Shown here one piece after another: positions 23,354 through 34,510 of a stretch of 64,000 nucleotides of DNA. Below the pieces are notes generated by a model, which was not told where the DNA came from, did no database searches, and saw only the letters and a list, made by a program, of their open reading frames with translations. The DNA lies in assembly GCA_022797535.1 (NCBI GenBank), contig JAAWKU010000005.1:3175-67174 (forward strand). The letters are read 5' to 3'. The position numbers and the translations under genes are program-made. Numbering within the stretch: the first letter of the stretch is position 1; every line of letters begins with the position of its first letter. Source of the DNA: Lachnospiraceae bacterium. Its GTDB lineage: Bacteria > Bacillota > Clostridia > Lachnospirales > Lachnospiraceae.

Positions 23354-23388
23354 TTAAACAGATGCAATACGGCATGGAGGATACAAAA

Positions 23389-25947
23389 GTGAACGCAAAG
23401 ACTGCGCACATAACCAAGACAGGAGACAAAATATTTGAACAGGACTTAAAAGAGCATTTACTTCATACAGCCATACTGTGCAGAGGATATATGGAGAAAG
23501 CGGGCTGCCCAGGCATGGGGTATCTGGCGGGCATCCTCCACGACGCAGGCAAGGCCGGGCCGGCCTTTCAGGGCAGGATGGAGGCCATACGGGAAGGCAG
23601 GCCGGATCCGGGGCAGAAAGGGGGACATGCCTCTGCCGGTGCGGTGCTGCTTGGCAGATTGAGCCAAAAGCTGGATCATTGCTCCAAGAGGACTGACAAC
23701 TGCTCCAAGAGCTTCACTTTGCAGGCCATATGTGAGGCCATTTTTTCCCATCATGCGGCACTGCCGGACAATATATCACCTCAGCTGGAGGATGGATATA
23801 AGGCCAGGCTTCAATGTGAAGAAGATGAATTGGCGGAGATAGAGGCATATTTTTTGGGGGAAATCATCTCCAGAGAGTGCTTTGAGAAACTTCTGGAGCA
23901 GGCATGCGGGGAGGCAGAAGCATTTGTAAAAAGGATGAGACGCTGCGCAAGAGCCCGGAAAGAGATGGATTTTTTCCTGGGCATGGCGGAGAAGATGCTG
24001 TTGTCAGCTCTGATTGACGCCGACTGGCTGGACAGCGCCACCTGCGGCGGGCAGGGGCAGACGGATTTTGAGGATCTGGTGAAAGAAGAATTTAGCCCCA
24101 GGTATGGAGAAAACTCTGTAAATATGTCCAGGGAACAGTTGTTTACGCATTTTCTGGGCAATCTGGAGAATGGTTTGAGGGAAATGAACCGGTCCGCCAA
24201 ACCCATCAATACATGGAGAAATTATATATCTGACCAATGTAAGGAGGCGGGAGCCAGAAAGGGAGGGATCTATACCCTGTCCTGTCCCACCGGGGCCGGC
24301 AAAACCCTGGCGGTGACCCGATTCGCCCTGACTCATTGCGTCCAGCAGGGTAAAGAAAGGATATTCTATATTATTCCCTACCTGTCGGTCATTGACCAGA
24401 CGGCCAAAAGCATAAAGAAGGCGCTGGGAGCCAAGAATCCGGGAGACACCGACGAACTGGTGGAAAGCGGTATACTGGAACTTCATTCCCAGGCAGAGTA
24501 CAAAAAAGGAGGAAAAACGCCGGGTAACTCATTGGCCGGGGAGGAGGAACCTGCCACCGAAGGGGACTTCTGGGCACAGAGGATGGCGGAGCCCATAGTG
24601 CTGACCACCATGGTGCGTTTTCTGAATACTTTTTTTGCCCGGGGTACCAGAAATCTACGCCCGGCCCATCAGTTCCAAAACGCAGTGCTTATCTTTGATG
24701 AGGTGCAGACCCTCCCGGTAAAGCAGATCGCCCTGTTTAACAGTCTGATCAATTATCTGACACAGCTTTGCGGGTGCACATGCGTCCTGTGTACCGCCAC
24801 CCAGCCTCTGCTGGGGGAGACTGTAAAACCGGTATATCCCGCCAAAATGGCTGAACCCGCGGCGCTGGCGGAACTCCCCCCGGAAGCGGGAGAAGTTTTC
24901 AGGCGGGCGCGGATAGAACCCCGGCTGAAAACGGCGGGTTATACGCAAAAGGAACTGGCGGATTTTGTCTGGGAAACGGCGGAAGAGAGCGGAAACGCTC
25001 TGGTGATCCTGAATACCAGGGACTGTGCGCTGGCTCTTTACAGTGAAGTGGTAAAGCGGGCGGGAGAGGCATATAAGGTGTATTATCTGTCCACAAAGCT
25101 ATACGCGGCGCACAGGAAAAGCATCATTGAAGAAATCCGCAGGGCGCTGAAGGCTGGAGAGAAAATCATGGTGATCAGCACATCCCTGATTGAGGCTGGC
25201 ATTGATTTTGATTTTTCCTGCGTGATCCGATCTCTGGCGGGAATGGACTCCATCGTGCAGGCGGCGGGGAGATGCAACAGAGAAGGACTGCGGGGCGTAG
25301 AGCCCACTTATATTGTCAATCCCTGCCGGGAACTGGAATCACTGGTTCGACTGAGGGATATCCGCGTGGGGGCCGCCTCTTCTGAGCGGCTGTTGGCGGA
25401 GCTTGCCAGGGACCGGACGCGGTTTGGAGGCGAGCTGCTGTCGGAGGAAGCGATACATATTTACTTTTCCTATTATTTCTGGGAAAGAGCGGAAGAGATG
25501 GTTTACCCCATCTCCAGAGAAAGCGGCGGTTCTCTGTATAATTTACTATCAGATAATATGGGTCTGGTGAAGTCGGGCCATCTACACAATGCCTATGAAG
25601 TGAAATTGCTGAATCAGGCATTTAAAACGGCGGCAGAACATTTCAGCGTTATAGAGGAGAAAGGGAATTCCGTTTTTGTACCCAGGGGCCGGGGAAAGGA
25701 GATCTGGGCGGAGATCCAGAGAAATGCGAAACCTGGAAAAACAGAGTACAAGTATATAAAGAGCCTTTTAAAGGAAGCACAGCAATATGTGGTAAATCTG
25801 CACAATTATGAAATAGAAAAGCTGGGAAAGGGGGCCATACAATGGGAGGATAAAATGGGGATGTATGTCCTGAATGAGATGTACTATGACGAAAAGGCCG
25901 GAATTACCGGGGAAATCAGCAGTAATATGCCGATACAAATGTTTTGA
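23389..25947 (+). CDS. cas3: CRISPR-associated HD nuclease/helicase Cas3, type I-C
   Basis: HLL..LHDAGK and HH HD motifs, CPTGAGKT, IFDEVQ, CTAT, QAAGRCNREG; GTG 23389 follows GGAGG (ORF track start 23362). Confidence 0.96.
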   Translation: MNAKTAHITKTGDKIFEQDLKEHLLHTAILCRGYMEKAGCPGMGYLAGILHDAGKAGPAFQGRMEAIREGRPDPGQKGGHASAGAVLLGRLSQKLDHCSKRTDNCSKSFTLQAICEAIFSHHAALPDNISPQLEDGYKARLQCEEDELAEIEAYFLGEIISRECFEKLLEQACGEAEAFVKRMRRCARARKEMDFFLGMAEKMLLSALIDADWLDSATCGGQGQTDFEDLVKEEFSPRYGENSVNMSREQLFTHFLGNLENGLREMNRSAKPINTWRNYISDQCKEAGARKGGIYTLSCPTGAGKTLAVTRFALTHCVQQGKERIFYIIPYLSVIDQTAKSIKKALGAKNPGDTDELVESGILELHSQAEYKKGGKTPGNSLAGEEEPATEGDFWAQRMAEPIVLTTMVRFLNTFFARGTRNLRPAHQFQNAVLIFDEVQTLPVKQIALFNSLINYLTQLCGCTCVLCTATQPLLGETVKPVYPAKMAEPAALAELPPEAGEVFRRARIEPRLKTAGYTQKELADFVWETAEESGNALVILNTRDCALALYSEVVKRAGEAYKVYYLSTKLYAAHRKSIIEEIRRALKAGEKIMVISTSLIEAGIDFDFSCVIRSLAGMDSIVQAAGRCNREGLRGVEPTYIVNPCRELESLVRLRDIRVGAASSERLLAELARDRTRFGGELLSEEAIHIYFSYYFWERAEEMVYPISRESGGSLYNLLSDNMGLVKSGHLHNAYEVKLLNQAFKTAAEHFSVIEEKGNSVFVPRGRGKEIWAEIQRNAKPGKTEYKYIKSLLKEAQQYVVNLHNYEIEKLGKGAIQWEDKMGMYVLNEMYYDEKAGITGEISSNMPIQMF

Positions 25948-26101
25948 GAAACGGTTACAGCCTGTTTCCGAATAACGTAATCATCCGGAAAATAATCTGC
26001 CGCATCGTACTTTGGGCAGTTCTCCATCGGATAAGGCTTTTGCGGAAAAGGGAACAGGATGGAATCAATACAGTAAGTTGTATTGGACAGAAAGGAGGAG
26101 C

Positions 26102-26836
26102 ATGGAAAAAGAGAACAGTATTACATTTGCGCTGACAGGGCGTCGGGCGCTTTTTACGGATCCTGTCAGCAAGATGGGCGGAGAAAAATTCACCTACCAG
26201 GTTCCCACCTACCAGGCGCTGAAAGGGGTGCTGGAAAGCATCTACTGGAAACCTACGCTGGTTTGGATCGTGGACAGGCTGCGGGTTATGAATCCCATTC
26301 GCTCGGAATCCCAGGCTGTGAGGCCCATCGACTATGGCGGAGGCAATACCCTGTCGATCTACACCTATCTGGCGGATGTGGAATACCGGGTGCAGGCACA
26401 TTTTGTATGGAATGAGAACCGGCCCGACCTGGCCGGGGACAGGGATGAAAACAAACATTATTTTATTGCCAGGAGGGCGCTGGAAAAGGGAGGCCGGAGA
26501 GACATTTTCCTGGGAACCAGGGAGTGCCAGGGCTATGTGGAACCCTGCGATTTTGACGGCGGCCAGGGAGCCTATGACATGTATGACGAGTTTCCGCTGG
26601 GGCTGATGTTTCATGGGTTTACCTACCCTGACGAGGCGGTGCGGCAGGAGGAGAAGAATAAGCTGACGGCCAGGTTCTTTCACCCGGTGATGAAGAGAGG
26701 GGTTATTACGTTTCCTGCGCCGGAGGAGTGTGGCATTCGCCGGATTCTGACAGACCGAAAACCCAGGGAGTTCAGCCTGGAAAAAGGGAATGTGACATTT
26801 GCGGGGGGAGGTGCGCTGGATGAGTTGGCTGAATGA
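26102..26836 (+). CDS. cas5c: Type I-C Cas5c (Cas5d), crRNA-processing subunit
   Basis: [37 protein letters not shown]; ATG after AGGAGGAG. Confidence 0.95.
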
Positions 26837-28673
26837 TTTGTACCTGACCTACGAGGTCTGCAAGAGCGATCCCCAGCTTTTGCCCATCGCGCATCTGACC
26901 CAGAATGCGCAGCTGGAGGTGGTTCTGGATGAAGAGGGGAATTTTTCCCGGGCCAGCCGGGTGGACAAGGAGGATGCGGTCACGGTGGTCCCTGTCACGG
27001 AGGATTCTGGCAGCAGGAGCGGCAAAGCCATTTTCCCTCATCCCCTGTGTGACAAGCTGGAATATATCGCCGGGGATTATGCGGATTTCGTGCCGGGCAG
27101 CATGGGGGATAAATTCGAAGCCTATATTGCACAGTTGGGTAAATGGGCCCAGTCCGATTACAGTCTCCCCCAGATTAGGAGCGTATACAGGTATCTGCAG
27201 GAACGCAGACTCATGGAGGATTTGCGGGAGGCCGGTTTTTTCACCTTCGAGGATGGCAGGATCCAGGCGGAAAAGCAGCAGGGGGTAGCGCTGGAGAACT
27301 GGTTTGTGCGCTTTGCGGTAGAGATTCCAGGACAGCCTGAGCGCAGACTGTACCGTGACCGACAGGTATTTGACAGCTACATAGAGTATTATCTGTCCAT
27401 CCAGAACAGCAGGGAGTTGTGCTATGTCTCCGGCGAGACCGTGCCCTGCTCTGAGAAGCATCCGGCCAAAATACGGAATACGGCCGACAAGGCCAAGTTG
27501 ATTTCCGCTAATGACGCGTCGGGTGTGCTGACCTTCAAGGGGCGGTTCCGTGACAGCAGCCAGGTGGCTTCCGTGAGTTATGAGATATCCCAGAAGGCTC
27601 ACAGCGCCCTTCGCTGGCTGATTGCCAGACAGTCAAGCCTGAAAATCGGGGAACAGGTTTTTGTGACATGGTCCATGGAAAATCTTGACATGCCCTCCCC
27701 TTTCCTTGAGTTGGATTGGGGGGAGGAAACAGAGGGCATTGCAGATGGCCCGTATCCAGACTGGGAGGAGGAGCAGGAGGTCTTTATAGATGACGCCTAT
27801 TCGGACTGGGTGCATAGGGCCATCTGGGGGTCGGGCCCGGCTCCGGAGGACAGGGATACCGTCATGGTAATGGGGGTGGAAGCAGCCACCACAGGCCGAC
27901 TGTCCATTCCCTTTTATCAGAAATATGGGGCAAAGCAATTTATCCAAAATGTGGCCAGGTGGAAAACGGAGACCTGCTGGCTGAGCTGGTCGAACAAGAC
28001 GCAGGCATATGGGCCCTGGTCTCCCTCTTTGATCGAGATCGTAAAGCTGGTGGCAGGGGAGAAAAACGCCAAGCTGAATAAAAGTGTGCGGGAACGGCTG
28101 ATCCCCTGCATCGTGGAGGGCAGGAAACTTCCCTATGATATAGTGTTGTCCGCCCTGGGGCAGGCCGTAAATCCTTCACATTTTAAGGAGTATTGGGAGT
28201 GGAACAGGGTCGTGACAATTACATGTGCCCTGCTGAGAAAGTGGCAGATAGAAAGAGGAGACGGAAGGGAGGAACACAGTATGAGTTTGAATGTGGAGAG
28301 CAAGGACAGGAGTTACATTTTCGGTCAGCTGCTGGCCACGGCGGAGATGTTGGAGAGAAGCGCTCTGGTCATGGGGAGCAGCAGCAATAAGGAGGGAATG
28401 CGGAACACGGCGGCGGAAAAATATTTTGTCCGGTTCCAGAGATATCCGGTGGAGACCTGGGCCACCATCAGGAATCAGCTGCAGCCGTATGTGATGAAGC
28501 TGGGGAATGCAGGAAAGTTTTTTTATATTCATAAGCTGGCCGAATTGACTGACAGACTTGATATGAGCCAGAGGGACAGGCTGGAACCTACCTTTTTGCA
28601 GGGTTATAGCAGCCAGATTATAGAGTATCGCAATTCCTCCAGGAAGCAGGAGAGTGGGAAGGAAAAGGATTAG
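26820..28673 (+). CDS. cas8c: Type I-C Cas8c (Csd1), large subunit
   Basis: MSWL..LY.TYE start, [49 protein letters not shown]. Confidence 0.95.
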
Positions 28674-28758: not shown

Positions 28759-29625
28759 ATGAGCGAATTTACAAACAAAATTGATTTTGCAGTGGTATTC
28801 AGTGTGAAAAATGCAAATCCCAACGGTGACCCCCTGAACGGGAACAGACCCAGGGAGACCTATGACGGATTCGGGGAGGTGTCGGATGTATGCCTGAAGA
28901 GGAAGATCCGAAACCGAATGATGGATCTGGGATATCCGGTGTTCGTGCAGTCCGATGATCGGAACGTGGACGGCATCAGAAGCCTGAGCGACAGGGCGGG
29001 GGCAGCGCCGGAACTGAAGGAGGCGGGAAAGGACAAGGAGAAGTATGCAGCGGCCGCCTGCCAAAAATGGATGGATGTGCGGACTTTTGGCCAGGTATTT
29101 GCTTTTAAGAGCAAGGACAAGGGAGCCGAGGGGGATGGCGTGTCGGTGGGGGTGAGGGGCCCTGTGTCCATCCAGACGGCAGTAAGTGTAGCCCCCATTG
29201 ATATTTCCTCCATGCAGATCACCAAGAGCGTCAACAGTGAGACCAGTGAGAAGAAATCCCCGGATACCATGGGGATGAAGCACAGGGTTGACTTTGGCAT
29301 GTATGTCACTTATGGCAGCATCAATCATCAGTTGGCGGAAAAGACAGGATTTTCGGACGAGGATGCGGAGGTAATCCGGGAGATTCTGGTGACATTGTTT
29401 GAAAATGACGCTTCTTCCGCCAGACCTGATGGCAGCATGGAAGTATGCAAGGTGATCTGGTGGAAGCACAACTGCTTCCTGGGGCAGTATTCCTCTGCCA
29501 AGGTGCATAGGTGCCTGCAAGTGCGCAGAAAGCCGGGAGTAGAAATCGCCAAGAGTCGGGAGGATTTTGAGATAACGGTGGCGGAACTGCCTGATCTGAA
29601 GGTTGAGATCTATGACGGAATTTGA
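28759..29625 (+). CDS. cas7c: Type I-C Cas7c (Csd2), backbone subunit
   Basis: NANPNGDP..NRPR, VSDVCLKRKIRN, DVRTFGQVF, GPVSI, ENDASSARP. Confidence 0.96.
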   Translation: MSEFTNKIDFAVVFSVKNANPNGDPLNGNRPRETYDGFGEVSDVCLKRKIRNRMMDLGYPVFVQSDDRNVDGIRSLSDRAGAAPELKEAGKDKEKYAAAACQKWMDVRTFGQVFAFKSKDKGAEGDGVSVGVRGPVSIQTAVSVAPIDISSMQITKSVNSETSEKKSPDTMGMKHRVDFGMYVTYGSINHQLAEKTGFSDEDAEVIREILVTLFENDASSARPDGSMEVCKVIWWKHNCFLGQYSSAKVHRCLQVRRKPGVEIAKSREDFEITVAELPDLKVEIYDGI

Positions 29626-30280
29626 ATATAAAGAAGAGGACTTTCTACAGCTTGCGGGCTTGCAGCATTTTACCTTTTGCAGAAGGCAATGGGCATTGAT
29701 CCACATTGAGCAGCAGTGGGAGGAGAATGTTCTCACCGTAAAGGGCAATCTTTTTCATGAGAAGGTGCATGACGGGTATTCCAGGGAGAGGAGAAAGAAT
29801 GTGATAATCTCCAGAGGAATGCCCGTGCATTCCAGATCACTGGGAATCAGCGGGGAGTGCGATGTGGTGGAATTTGTCCGGGCAGAAGAAGGAATCTCTC
29901 TGCCCGGACAGGAGGGAAAGTACATCCTATATCCGGTTGAGTACAAACGGGGCAGGGCAAAAATCACGGATGAGGACAGAATGCAGTTGACAGCCCAGGT
30001 AATATGCCTGGAGGAAATGTTTTTGACAGAGATTTCCCGGGGCTATCTGTTTTACGGGGAAACCCGCAGACGGGAATGTGTGGAAATCACTGGGGAATTG
30101 CGTGCGGAATGCAGAAGGCTGCTTCAGGAGATGCACCAGTTTTATGCAAGGGGATACACTCCAAAAGTGAAAAAGGCTAAAAAATGCGAGGCATGTTCTC
30201 TGCGGGAACTCTGCCTGCCCAAGCTGGAGAACAGAAGGAATGTGGCGCAATATATCTCCCAATATATGGAGTCTGATTGA
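29612..30280 (+). CDS. cas4: Cas4 exonuclease
   Basis: LQHFTFCRRQW, DVVE..PVEYKRG RecB motif, QLTAQ, C-terminal CEACSL..LCLP Fe-S ligands. Confidence 0.95.
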   Translation: MTEFEYKEEDFLQLAGLQHFTFCRRQWALIHIEQQWEENVLTVKGNLFHEKVHDGYSRERRKNVIISRGMPVHSRSLGISGECDVVEFVRAEEGISLPGQEGKYILYPVEYKRGRAKITDEDRMQLTAQVICLEEMFLTEISRGYLFYGETRRRECVEITGELRAECRRLLQEMHQFYARGYTPKVKKAKKCEACSLRELCLPKLENRRNVAQYISQYMESD

Positions 30281-30296: not shown

Positions 30297-30580
30297 AAGA
30301 ATGCGGATTTCGGATTGAATGCGAAGCCGCATAAAGAAAGCTGATTCAGGTTGAAGTCGTAGCTGAGTGAAGAAAGCGGATTCAGGTTGAAATTGTAGCT
30401 GCGATAAGAAAGCTGATTCAGGTTGAAATCGTAGCTGCGATAAGAAAGCGGATCCAGGCTGAAATCGTAGCTGCGAGAAGAAAGCGGATTCAGGTTGAAA
30501 TCGTAGCTGCGATAAGAAAGCGGATCCAAGCTGAAATCGTAGCTACGTAGAAGAATACTGATTCAGGGTTGAACCCGAAA
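30297..30580. repeat. 36-bp tandem repeat: six good copies (30334-30549) plus degenerate flanking copies
   Basis: Consensus AAGAAAGC(G/T)GAT(T/C)CAGG(T/C)TGAAATCGTAGCTGCGAT; units start at 30334, 30370, 30406, 30442, 30478, 30514. Confidence 0.95.
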
Positions 30581-30892: not shown

Positions 30893-31924
30893 ATGAGGAA
30901 ACTGCTGAATACGCTGTATATTACATCCAGTGAATATTATCTGTCACTGGACGGGGAAAACGTGATTATTTCCCAGGGTAAGAAAGAGATGGGGAGGTTG
31001 CCGCTTCACAATCTGGAGGCTATTGTGACATGTGGATACGCAGGGGCAAGTCCGGCTTTAATGGAGAAGTGTGCGGCCGGCAATATCTCCATGACATTTC
31101 TGTCTCCCACAGGCAGATTCCGGGCTAAAGTAACGGGAAAGGCATATGGCAATATCCTGTTGCGAAGGACACAGTATCGAATGGCAGATGATAAGAAACA
31201 AACGTTGGAGATTGCCCGGAATTTCATGATCGGAAAAATATATAACCAGCGAAGCGTTATAAACCGAGCTATGCGGGACTATGGAGAACGGTTGGATACG
31301 GAAAAGCTGAGCCTGGTCTCTACTCAGCTCAAAGGGACCCTTCAAAGCGTGAGAGAGGCGGATACCATGGAAACGCTGCGGGGAAACGAGGGAGAGGCGG
31401 CTTCCCGCTATTTTTCCCAGTTTAATCAGTTGATCTTACAGCAGAGAGAGGAGTTCTCTTTTGATACGAGAAACAGGAGACCGCCATTGGATAAGGTGAA
31501 TGCTTTACTCTCCTTCACATATGCCCTTTTGACCAGTATGTGCGTAGCAGCCCTGGAGACGGTGGGCCTGGATCCCTATGCGGGCTTTATGCATACGGAC
31601 AGGCCGGGACGCTGTTCACTGGCGTTGGATTTGATGGAGGAACTCAGAGCCCCTTACGCCGATCGGTTTACCCTTTCCTGCATTAACAGGAAAATGGTGG
31701 ATTCAACAGATTTTGAAGAGAAGGAGAATGGGGCTGTTTTTCTAAACGAGTCCGGGAGGAAAAAATATCTGTCCGCATGGCAGAACAAAAAGGCAGAAAA
31801 GTTGACGCATCCCTATTTGCAGGAGAGCATAGAATGGGGGCTTGTTCCTTATGTGCAGGCATTGTTGTTGGCTCGCTTTATAAGGGGAGATCTGGATGGA
31901 TATCCTCCCTTTTTATGGAAATAA
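30893..31924 (+). CDS. cas1: Type I-C Cas1 integrase
   Basis: MRKLLNTLYIT, RGNEGEAASRYF, RNRRPPLD.VNALLSF.Y, GFMHTDRPGR.SLALDLMEE, GDLDGYPPFLWK. Confidence 0.97.
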   Translation: MRKLLNTLYITSSEYYLSLDGENVIISQGKKEMGRLPLHNLEAIVTCGYAGASPALMEKCAAGNISMTFLSPTGRFRAKVTGKAYGNILLRRTQYRMADDKKQTLEIARNFMIGKIYNQRSVINRAMRDYGERLDTEKLSLVSTQLKGTLQSVREADTMETLRGNEGEAASRYFSQFNQLILQQREEFSFDTRNRRPPLDKVNALLSFTYALLTSMCVAALETVGLDPYAGFMHTDRPGRCSLALDLMEELRAPYADRFTLSCINRKMVDSTDFEEKENGAVFLNESGRKKYLSAWQNKKAEKLTHPYLQESIEWGLVPYVQALLLARFIRGDLDGYPPFLWK

Positions 31925-31969: not shown

Positions 31970-32260
31970 ATGTTGATTGTTGTTACTTATGATGTGTCTA
32001 CCGAAACGGCTGCGGGAAGGGCCAGATTGCGAAAAGTTGCCAAACAATGCCAGAACTACGGACAGCGTGTCCAAAACTCGGTATTCGAATGTATTATTGA
32101 TGAGGCCCAGTTTGTCACTTTCAGAAGTAGTTTGCTGAAATTGATTAAAGAAGAGGAGGATAGCCTGCGCTTTTACCGCCTGGGAAACTCATACCACAAT
32201 CGCATAGAGCACTATGGAAGCAAAAATGTGCCGGATCTGGAGGCCCCTATTATTTTTTAA
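31970..32260 (+). CDS. cas2: Cas2
   Basis: MLIVVTYDV, RVQNSVFEC, DSLRFYRLG. Confidence 0.97.
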   Translation: MLIVVTYDVSTETAAGRARLRKVAKQCQNYGQRVQNSVFECIIDEAQFVTFRSSLLKLIKEEEDSLRFYRLGNSYHNRIEHYGSKNVPDLEAPIIF

Positions 32261-32423
32261 ACAGTGCGAATGCCAAGTACACATGCATTTGCAGAGAGTT
32301 TCGCACCTGATACTGTATCTATTTAGAGTCTATATTTTATGACAAGAGTAAAACAAGTGTGAAATATTGTTAACAATATATAACTTGTTAGCAATAGAAG
32401 TGATATTTTTGTTTACTTTTGGA
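32261..32423 (+). promoter_or_regulatory. CRISPR leader
   Basis: AT-rich 163 bp between cas2 and repeat 1; GTGCGAA (32264) / TTCGCAC (32300) inverted pair. Confidence 0.85.
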
Positions 32424-34510
32424 GTCACTCCCCGTGCGGGAGTGTGGATTGAAATTGGCCTGGCCAGTACAGGCGCAAACCAAATATACAGTCACTCCCC
32501 GTGCGGGAGTGTGGATTGAAATTGTCCCCGGAAGCCTATGAGGAAATGCGGGACTGTCACTCCCCGTGCGGGAGTGTGGATTGAAATCTTATCTATCTGC
32601 TGAACCGCATTGAGAGCAAAGGTCACTCCCCGTGCGGGAGTGTGGATTGAAATTCATAAACCGTGGGATTTACGCCTGCGGAATCCATGTCACTCCCCGT
32701 GCGGGAGTGTGGATTGAAATGCTGACGCAGTAAGCGCATCTGACACCTCGGTGCGTCACTCCCCGTGCGGGAGTGTGGATTGAAATTTCTGGCGGCAACG
32801 AACGTGTACCACATATACCAGTGTCACTCCCCGTGCGGGAGTGTGGATTGAAATTGCGGATGGGGTAACGGATTTGGCGGCGGCTATGGGTCACTCCCCG
32901 TGCGGGAGTGTGGATTGAAATTTTTGTATTTTTCAGTTCCGCCCGGATGTTTCCCGTCACTCCCCGTGCGGGAGTGTGGATTGAAATCCTCTGACGAGGA
33001 TGTTAGAAAAATACTGGTTTAGTCACTCCCCGTGCGGGAGTGTGGATTGAAATTTGCTGTCTTACGTCACCGATGAGCAGGGCAATATGTCACTCCCCGT
33101 GCGGGAGTGTGGATTGAAATGTCCTGGCGATGTGATCCAGCGCTTTGGTAATCGTCACTCCCCGTGCGGGAGTGTGGATTGAAATATCAGGAGGCTCCTC
33201 TTCCGGCGGAGGAGACGGATGTCACTCCCCGTGCGGGAGTGTGGATTGAAATTGATGTATCAACCAATGAAAAATATGAAATAGAAGTCACTCCCCGTGC
33301 GGGAGTGTGGATTGAAATTCTTGTGGTCCTGCGGCCGGTATTTTGCCATGCGGTCACTCCCCGTGCGGGAGTGTGGATTGAAATGATTTTTTCAGATAAT
33401 CCATCAAAGAATCCGGCCAGTCACTCCCCGTGCGGGAGTGTGGATTGAAATCCAAAATTTTTAAAAGGTGTGTGGGTCAGCGAGTCACTCCCCGTGCGGG
33501 AGTGTGGATTGAAATATATACCATAACACCTTTTGACATTTTACCAGCGTCACTCCCCGTGCGGGAGTGTGGATTGAAATCTTATCTATCTGCTTAACCG
33601 CATTGAGAACAAAGGTCACTCCCCGTGCGGGAGTGTGGATTGAAATAAATCCAGTCGCCTTGATAGAAAAATCGCGATGCGCAGTCACTCCCCGTGCGGG
33701 AGTGTGGATTGAAATAACCGCCTGTCGTGGGAAGCCTGCCGCCGGATTGTCACTCCCCGTGCGGGAGTGTGGATTGAAATGTCCGATAATTCAGAGCAGG
33801 AGAGCAATCTTCCAGTCACTCCCCGTGCGGGAGTGTGGATTGAAATTCCGATACCTCTGTGCATGCTGCCATGCTCATTGAGTCACTCCCCGTGCGGGAG
33901 TGTGGATTGAAATTGTATTCCGATCCGCACCGTAGAGGACTGGGCTGCGTCACTCCCCGTGCGGGAGTGTGGATTGAAATATTGATGATTACCAGTTTAA
34001 CCGGCTATGGACAGTCACTCCCCGTGCGGGAGTGTGGATTGAAATCGTCTGAAGTAATAGTAAAATGTAAAGTATCGGAGTCACTCCCCGTGCGGGAGTG
34101 TGGATTGAAATAACACACAATCCTAGGCAGATTGAGGAATGAGTGCGTCACTCCCCGTGCGGGAGTGTGGATTGAAATCATTGAGGAACATCCTTTTGCT
34201 CTTAAGGTCAACAGTCACTCCCCGTGCGGGAGTGTGGATTGAAATAATCTGCGCCGCAATCTCTATTAGCTTGCAGACGGTCACTCCCCGTGCGGGAGTG
34301 TGGATTGAAATCTCCTTTGTGGCTTTGTCATCGAGCATATTTTCCGTCACTCCCCGTGCGGGAGTGTGGATTGAAATATATGGGTGGAACGGGGAGGGCG
34401 GTGTCCGCTGGGGTCACTCCCCGTGCGGGAGTGTGGATTGAAATTGTTAAAGATGCATTTGAACTAATGAAACACATGGTCACTCCCCGTGCGGAAGTAC
34501 AGATTGTGCC
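32424..34510 (+). CRISPR. Type I-C CRISPR array: 32 repeats, 31 spacers of 32-37 nt
   Basis: Repeat GTCACTCCCCGTGCGGGAGTGTGGATTGAAAT (32 nt; CACTCCC/GGGAGTG stem); 31 identical copies and a degenerate terminal copy at 34479. Confidence 0.99.

Follow-up and report, generated by a model that had tools for sequence, protein, structure and literature searches.

One protospacer, two spacers: a type I-C CRISPR array of a Lachnospiraceae bacterium probably captured the same site from two variants

Two of the 31 spacers in a CRISPR array of a Lachnospiraceae bacterium, numbers 3 and 18, are almost the same sequence, which raises the question of how one array came to hold two versions of one memory. 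The array lies in the window, by which we mean the whole stretch of DNA that was analyzed (64,000 nucleotides of contig JAAWKU010000005.1). A sequence-only reading of this DNA had proposed that the two spacers were acquired independently from two variants of a recurrent invader at the same PAM, rather than by duplication of a block of the array. Our analysis, on indirect evidence, leaves this as the best explanation: the unrelated neighbors of the two spacers rule against block duplication, and we put the probability that spacers 3 and 18 are independent captures of one site from two alleles at roughly 0.8.

The window contains an intact type I-C CRISPR-Cas locus, all of it on the + strand, in the order cas3-cas5-cas8c-cas7-cas4-cas1-cas2, leader, array. 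The first gene, cas3 (23362..25947), encodes an HD nuclease and helicase of 861 aa (Pfam Cas3_HD, DEAD, Helicase_C, and Cas3-like_C_2). It is followed by cas5 of the Cas5d/Cas5c type (26012..26836; Pfam Cas_Cas5d, E 1e-39), by the type I-C signature gene cas8c (Csd1; 26799..28673; Pfam Cas_Csd1, E 3e-104), and by cas7 (28759..29625; Pfam Cas_Cas7, E 1e-82). The adaptation module consists of cas4 (29603..30280; Pfam Cas_Cas4, E 1e-22), cas1 (30893..31924; Pfam Cas_Cas1, E 3e-103), and cas2 (31970..32260; Pfam CRISPR_Cas2, E 3e-26), and it adjoins the leader and the array. This arrangement, the presence of cas8c (Csd1) together with cas5 and cas7, and the HD nuclease and helicase domains of Cas3 all correspond to type I-C. 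No further ORF between cas3 and cas2 fitted as a cas6 candidate. Within the cas operon, some 600 nt of repeat DNA separate cas4 from cas1, and a 36-bp tandem repeat in 6.6 copies (30334-30573) lies in this gap.

An AT-rich leader of 163 nt (32261..32423, +), placed by its position, extends from cas2 to the first repeat. The array itself (32424..34510, +) comprises 31 perfect 32-nt repeats and 31 spacers of 32 to 37 nt; its trailer end is marked by a further, decayed repeat that has 8 mismatches (34479..34510, +). All 31 repeat copies (992 nt) are identical and have the 3' end ATTGAAAT, in keeping with the 32-nt repeat ending in ATTGAAA(T/C) and the spacers of 33-37 nt that distinguish type I-C arrays, and the repeat matches those of further I-C arrays, both from plasmid records and from genomes of the genus. 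The source genome, a 3.5-Mb draft in 206 contigs that is 93.75% complete and could be a metagenome bin, has only one array with this repeat. The polarity of the array follows from the position of the leader and from the decay of the last repeat: age increases from spacer 1, the youngest, to spacer 31 (34445..34478, +), the oldest, and spacer 3 is therefore younger than spacer 18.

Spacer 3 (32588..32621, +) and spacer 18 (33581..33614, +) are both 34 nt long and are each bordered by a perfect 32-nt repeat. As first described, and at exactly the coordinates given then, they have identical ends and differ only at position 15, which is G in the younger and T in the older copy, and at position 29, which is G and A, respectively. 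Their likeness stands out in the array: in an in-register comparison of all 465 spacer pairs, the next closest pair differs at 16 positions. A third copy was found neither in the window at up to 3 mismatches (0 expected, from 100 shuffles) nor in the bacterium's own 3.5-Mb genome at up to 6 mismatches. The two spacers had also been read as codons, LIYLLNRIESK and LIYLLNRIENK, with one synonymous and one nonsynonymous change. The + strand frame does give these peptides, but the classification of the changes rests on a putative frame, because the opposite strand is equally open: it, too, has one open frame, in which both changes alter a residue.

The spacers next to spacer 3 and those next to spacer 18 are unrelated, as had been claimed. 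They have no word of 10 nt or more in common, and there is thus no duplicated block around the pair; the longest stretch common to the two contexts is 46 nt, that is, the repeat plus 14 nt. With their repeats, the two units form a near-perfect direct repeat of 98 nt, through which the 15 intervening units could predictably be lost or duplicated.

The arrays of sister species show how often one site is captured more than once. We compared 29 such arrays, whose repeats are identical or almost identical to ours and which together hold 948 spacers. In five pairs the PAM-proximal end is common and the PAM-distal end differs by 1-2 nt (spacers 38/40 of array L006, 5 and 8 versus 11 of L015, 19/20 of L016, 8/12 of L019, and 5/10 of L020). 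Such far-end-only differences point to independent captures, because the imprecise type I-C ruler yields ends of this kind (PMC5602111) and random indels would not. One more pair, spacers 12/14 of L013, differs by two substitutions and by 1 nt in length; to judge by its sequence, it is a direct analogue of the pair formed by spacers 3 and 18. The far-end pairs and the L013 pair, six in all, therefore argue that re-capture of one site, including variant alleles, is routine in this lineage. Among the 948 spacers, same-site re-captures that differ at the far end are about as common as exact repeats. Exact repeats do occur in the sister arrays as well, and one of them is a clear block duplication of three units, in which units 5-6-7 of L015 equal units 8-9-10.

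Units 5-11 of that array (L015, G060:C10) read A-B-C-A-B-C-A', where A' is A plus one base. The duplication looks as if a spacer had recombined unequally with a twin re-captured earlier, and it offers a model for the effect that the pair of spacers 3 and 18 could have on the 15 units that lie between them.

Conspecific strains were available from mouse-gut Logan runs. Over flanks of ~840 nt, runs X1 and X3 show 0 differences from this genome, and X2 shows 0 on the leader side and 2 on the trailer side. Their arrays are another matter: that of X3 consists of spacer 31 alone and that of X2 of one private spacer plus spacer 31. X2 and X3 thus have in common with the source genome the leader, the trailer, and, among the spacers, only spacer 31, which is the sole spacer common to conspecific strains from other mouse-gut samples; the same leader accompanies differing arrays in these conspecific contigs. 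Comparison of these sequences suggests that point mutations build up far more slowly in this species than its arrays turn over, or collapse.

These comparisons bear on whether the pair could have arisen inside the array, if the repeat-spacer unit of spacer 18 was copied toward the leader by slipped replication or recombination and the copy then gained two point mutations. Spacers 3 and 18 are identical in length and ends, as duplication predicts with certainty, whereas two random draws from the spacer lengths of this array agree in 30% of cases and about half of the re-captured sister pairs agree exactly in length; this equality of length counts against two captures. The block duplication in L015 shows that such events do happen in sister arrays, and in a large survey (PMC11472070) 86% of repeated spacers were counted as duplications. 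Yet a tandem event over 15 units would copy a block, and no neighboring unit was copied here; in-array duplication leaves identical copies, usually with adjacent units co-duplicated, and spacers 3 and 18 show neither feature. Duplication would further need 2 substitutions in 34 nt, against none in the 992 nt of repeats and the 840 nt of flanks. Even if strain divergence is set at its upper bound (0.36%), at least 2 changes in 34 nt have a probability of at most 0.007, a soft bound in that the X strains might have lost spacers instead of never having held them. Duplication followed by mutation is, all in all, quite improbable.

The two alleles could instead have been captured in different strains, with the array segments joined later by homologous recombination or by chimeric metagenome assembly. 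Recombination between CRISPR arrays is documented, strains of this species with differing arrays coexist in mouse-gut samples, and the fragmented, incomplete draft, a possible metagenome bin, would suit the second route. The repeats, which are all identical, give no direct sign of a join, however; moreover, with a common stretch of 46 nt, an assembly k above 47 or reads of 150 nt would resolve both contexts. We regard a joined array as unlikely, and even if it were true, spacers 3 and 18 would still be independent captures. An error of sequencing or consensus, by which a single real sequence acquired two artifactual differences, is barely credible: nothing positive speaks for it, apart from the general difficulty of assembling arrays from short reads. 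It would place both differences in a single unit of 34 nt and yet leave 31 repeats and the two flanks free of errors, and the two versions stand in different, unambiguous spacer contexts. When four Logan runs were set against the array, no clear contig was obtained on spacer 3 or 18, and some bins there had depth.

The surroundings of the pair tell what this lineage has been exposed to. Spacer 2 (32523..32555, +) has a protospacer with 0-1 mismatch, next to a PAM of TTC or TCC, in what is probably the major capsid gene of a phage family. Two species of the same genus carry a prophage whose version of this gene matches the spacer with one mismatch, and further matches were found in nine IMG/VR contigs, of which L044 is exact (0 mismatches). 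Protospacers in the same phage family were found for spacer 4 (32654..32688, +; a diverged site with 7 mismatches in the minor capsid protein 2 gene), spacer 14 (6 mismatches), spacer 16 (33452..33483, +; 1-2 mismatches), spacer 19 (33647..33683, +; 1 mismatch, PAM TTC), spacer 20 (33716..33748, +; 3-9 mismatches, with TTC before the site in a mouse-gut contig), and spacer 28 (34246..34279, +; 3-7 mismatches, PAM TTC). At least seven spacers (2, 4, 14, 16, 19, 20, and 28) are thus directed against one phage family, represented in IMG/VR and by the prophage, and their sites lie on both strands of the head module, whose conserved genes are the easiest to detect.

We examined four long viral contigs of this family, all of full or nearly full length and three of them rated complete. 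One of them, G310, holds most of the sites: those of spacers 4, 19, 16, 2, and 28 fall in a stretch of ~8 kb in the head-morphogenesis module that takes in minor capsid protein 2, scaffold, capsid, and head-tail adaptor, in that order. In the array, spacers 2 and 4 sit beside spacer 3, and spacers 14, 16, 19, and 20 surround spacer 18. With the seven spacers directed against one family, both copies of the pair therefore sit among spacers against a recurrent phage. Among mouse-gut Logan contigs, one of 29 kb carries the targets of both spacer 6 and spacer 20, a second carries those of spacers 23 and 27, and spacer 1 has a perfect target; IMG/VR holds no exact match for spacers 1 and 17.

A 5' TTN PAM had been suggested for the system. 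The protospacers of spacers 1, 2, 19, 20, 25, 28, and 29 are preceded by TTC on the strand identical to the spacer, as are most of the closely matching sites, which narrows that suggestion to TTC, the canonical type I-C PAM (PMC5602111). At the protospacer of spacer 2 the PAM is polymorphic: it is TTC in three phage or prophage relatives and TCC in eight (L033 5001-5033, L034 5001-5033, and IMG/VR L043-L051). TCC is reported, in work that PMC5602111 cites, to function less well as a PAM, and by analogy the change from TTC to TCC would weaken type I-C targeting at this site. The protospacer of spacer 16, the shortest of the array (32 nt), is preceded by TAC, with TTC three bases further upstream. 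It looks like a +3 "slipped" acquisition, and its length fits the report that plus-slips yield shorter type I-C spacers (PMC5602111).

The site from which the pair itself was taken was sought widely. The sequence-only reading had looked to phage and plasmid databases for it, and blastn searches of GenBank phages and PLSDB plasmids, with a single spacer and with the whole array, returned no protospacer. IMG/VR gave none with an exact pattern carrying N at both variable sites, with codon-wobble patterns in both frames, or with two half-patterns. The exact and wobble patterns likewise found no protospacer in GTDB species genomes (one each for ~185,000 species) or in JGI metagenomes, and 100 relatives, 268 genomes of the genus, and 400 genomes of the family held none at up to 3 mismatches. 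The site is also missing from the four complete or near-complete genomes of the neighbors' phage family, at up to 10 mismatches and at the peptide level. Its source may be a variable region of this phage family or another element.

Three candidate matches were set aside. The wobble pattern matched one genome of the genus (G306) with 3 mismatches, antisense in a chromosomal gene of Fe-S/chemotaxis type and without TTC, which we attribute to chance. A match of 22/25 (E = 4) to MT837863.1, a phage scaffold from human feces, falls in a small gene of the phrog_6568 group. All 120 phrog_6568 homologues keep the motif AGF(E/D)LLNRIE(I/L/V)K; because the spacer peptide does not fit this motif and the MT837863.1 site lacks TTC, we judge this match to be chance as well. 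A weak peptide match in G310 is at chance level, with ~27 such matches expected by our estimate. The source genome has a phrog_6568 homologue of its own on another contig (G000 contig C103:22036-22221), which suggests that a prophage or related mobile element is present there.

If spacers 3 and 18 are two captures, Cas1-Cas2-Cas4 of an active type I-C system would have taken the same PAM-flanked 34-nt site twice. Spacer 18 would have come first, from one allele, and spacer 3 fifteen acquisitions later, from an allele that differed at positions 15 and 29. We infer that TTC flanked the site in the invader. The likely source is a phage, perhaps of the family targeted by the neighbors, or possibly another mobile element, that repeatedly infected this mouse-gut Lachnospiraceae lineage. 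The invader variant would have carried its two changes outside the seed, at positions 15 and 29; type I systems as a rule have base-paired, non-flipped nucleotides at these two positions.

The second capture was perhaps aided by priming from the imperfect spacer 18, or the site could be an acquisition hotspot; type I-C systems of Legionella are on record for both (PMC5602111, PMC5071653). By analogy with other type I-C systems, priming may have been involved; the more specific proposal that spacer 18, mismatched at positions 15 and 29, primed the re-capture of the same protospacer in its new form is tentative, and we lean against it. If it were true, the pair would document how an array in nature renewed a single memory in place, and the bursts of spacers 14-20 and 2-6 would mark two epidemics of one phage family.

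A pair of this sort is real but already known in kind. In the type I-C arrays of Legionella pneumophila, paired spacers target the same or overlapping sites of LME-1 (Rao et al. 2016, PMC5071653); the newer spacer of a pair is the better match, which was read as repeated invasion by related sequences, with acquisition possibly primed by the older, imperfect spacer (PMC5071653). Our pair belongs to the same subtype and likewise consists of two spacers of different age in one array that address one site. It differs in that the Legionella target, LME-1, is identified and perfectly matched by the newer spacer there, whereas here the site is known from the spacers alone, and in that our two spacers are in exactly the same register. 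The pair matters little alone, as a clean natural example of an array that recorded two variants of one site; taken with the neighboring spacers, it indicates that a mouse-gut Lachnospiraceae lineage meets one phage family repeatedly.

Type I-C adaptation in the laboratory has strong sequence-dependent hotspots and an imprecise length ruler, and targets can prime it whether they match perfectly or carry mismatches (Rao et al. 2017, PMC5602111). The arrays studied here agree with that work in the TTC PAM, the spacers of 33-37 nt, the slipped acquisitions, and the repeated capture of a site, which in that work was due to the internal sequence of the site; in particular, the hotspot and ruler behavior matches the sister pairs with the same start and different ends and the slipped PAM of spacer 16. 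Those results came from plasmid experiments, whereas ours are read from the record of a natural array. SpacerPlacer (PMC11472070), for its part, classes repeated spacers mostly as duplications, and these are predicted to promote loss by slippage. Like such duplications, the pair places a near-identical spacer twice in one array. Unlike them, since they are identical copies and often come as blocks, it carries two substitutions and stands among unrelated neighbors. The genus-wide count of re-captured sites may help modelers of array evolution, in whose work repeated spacers usually count as duplications.
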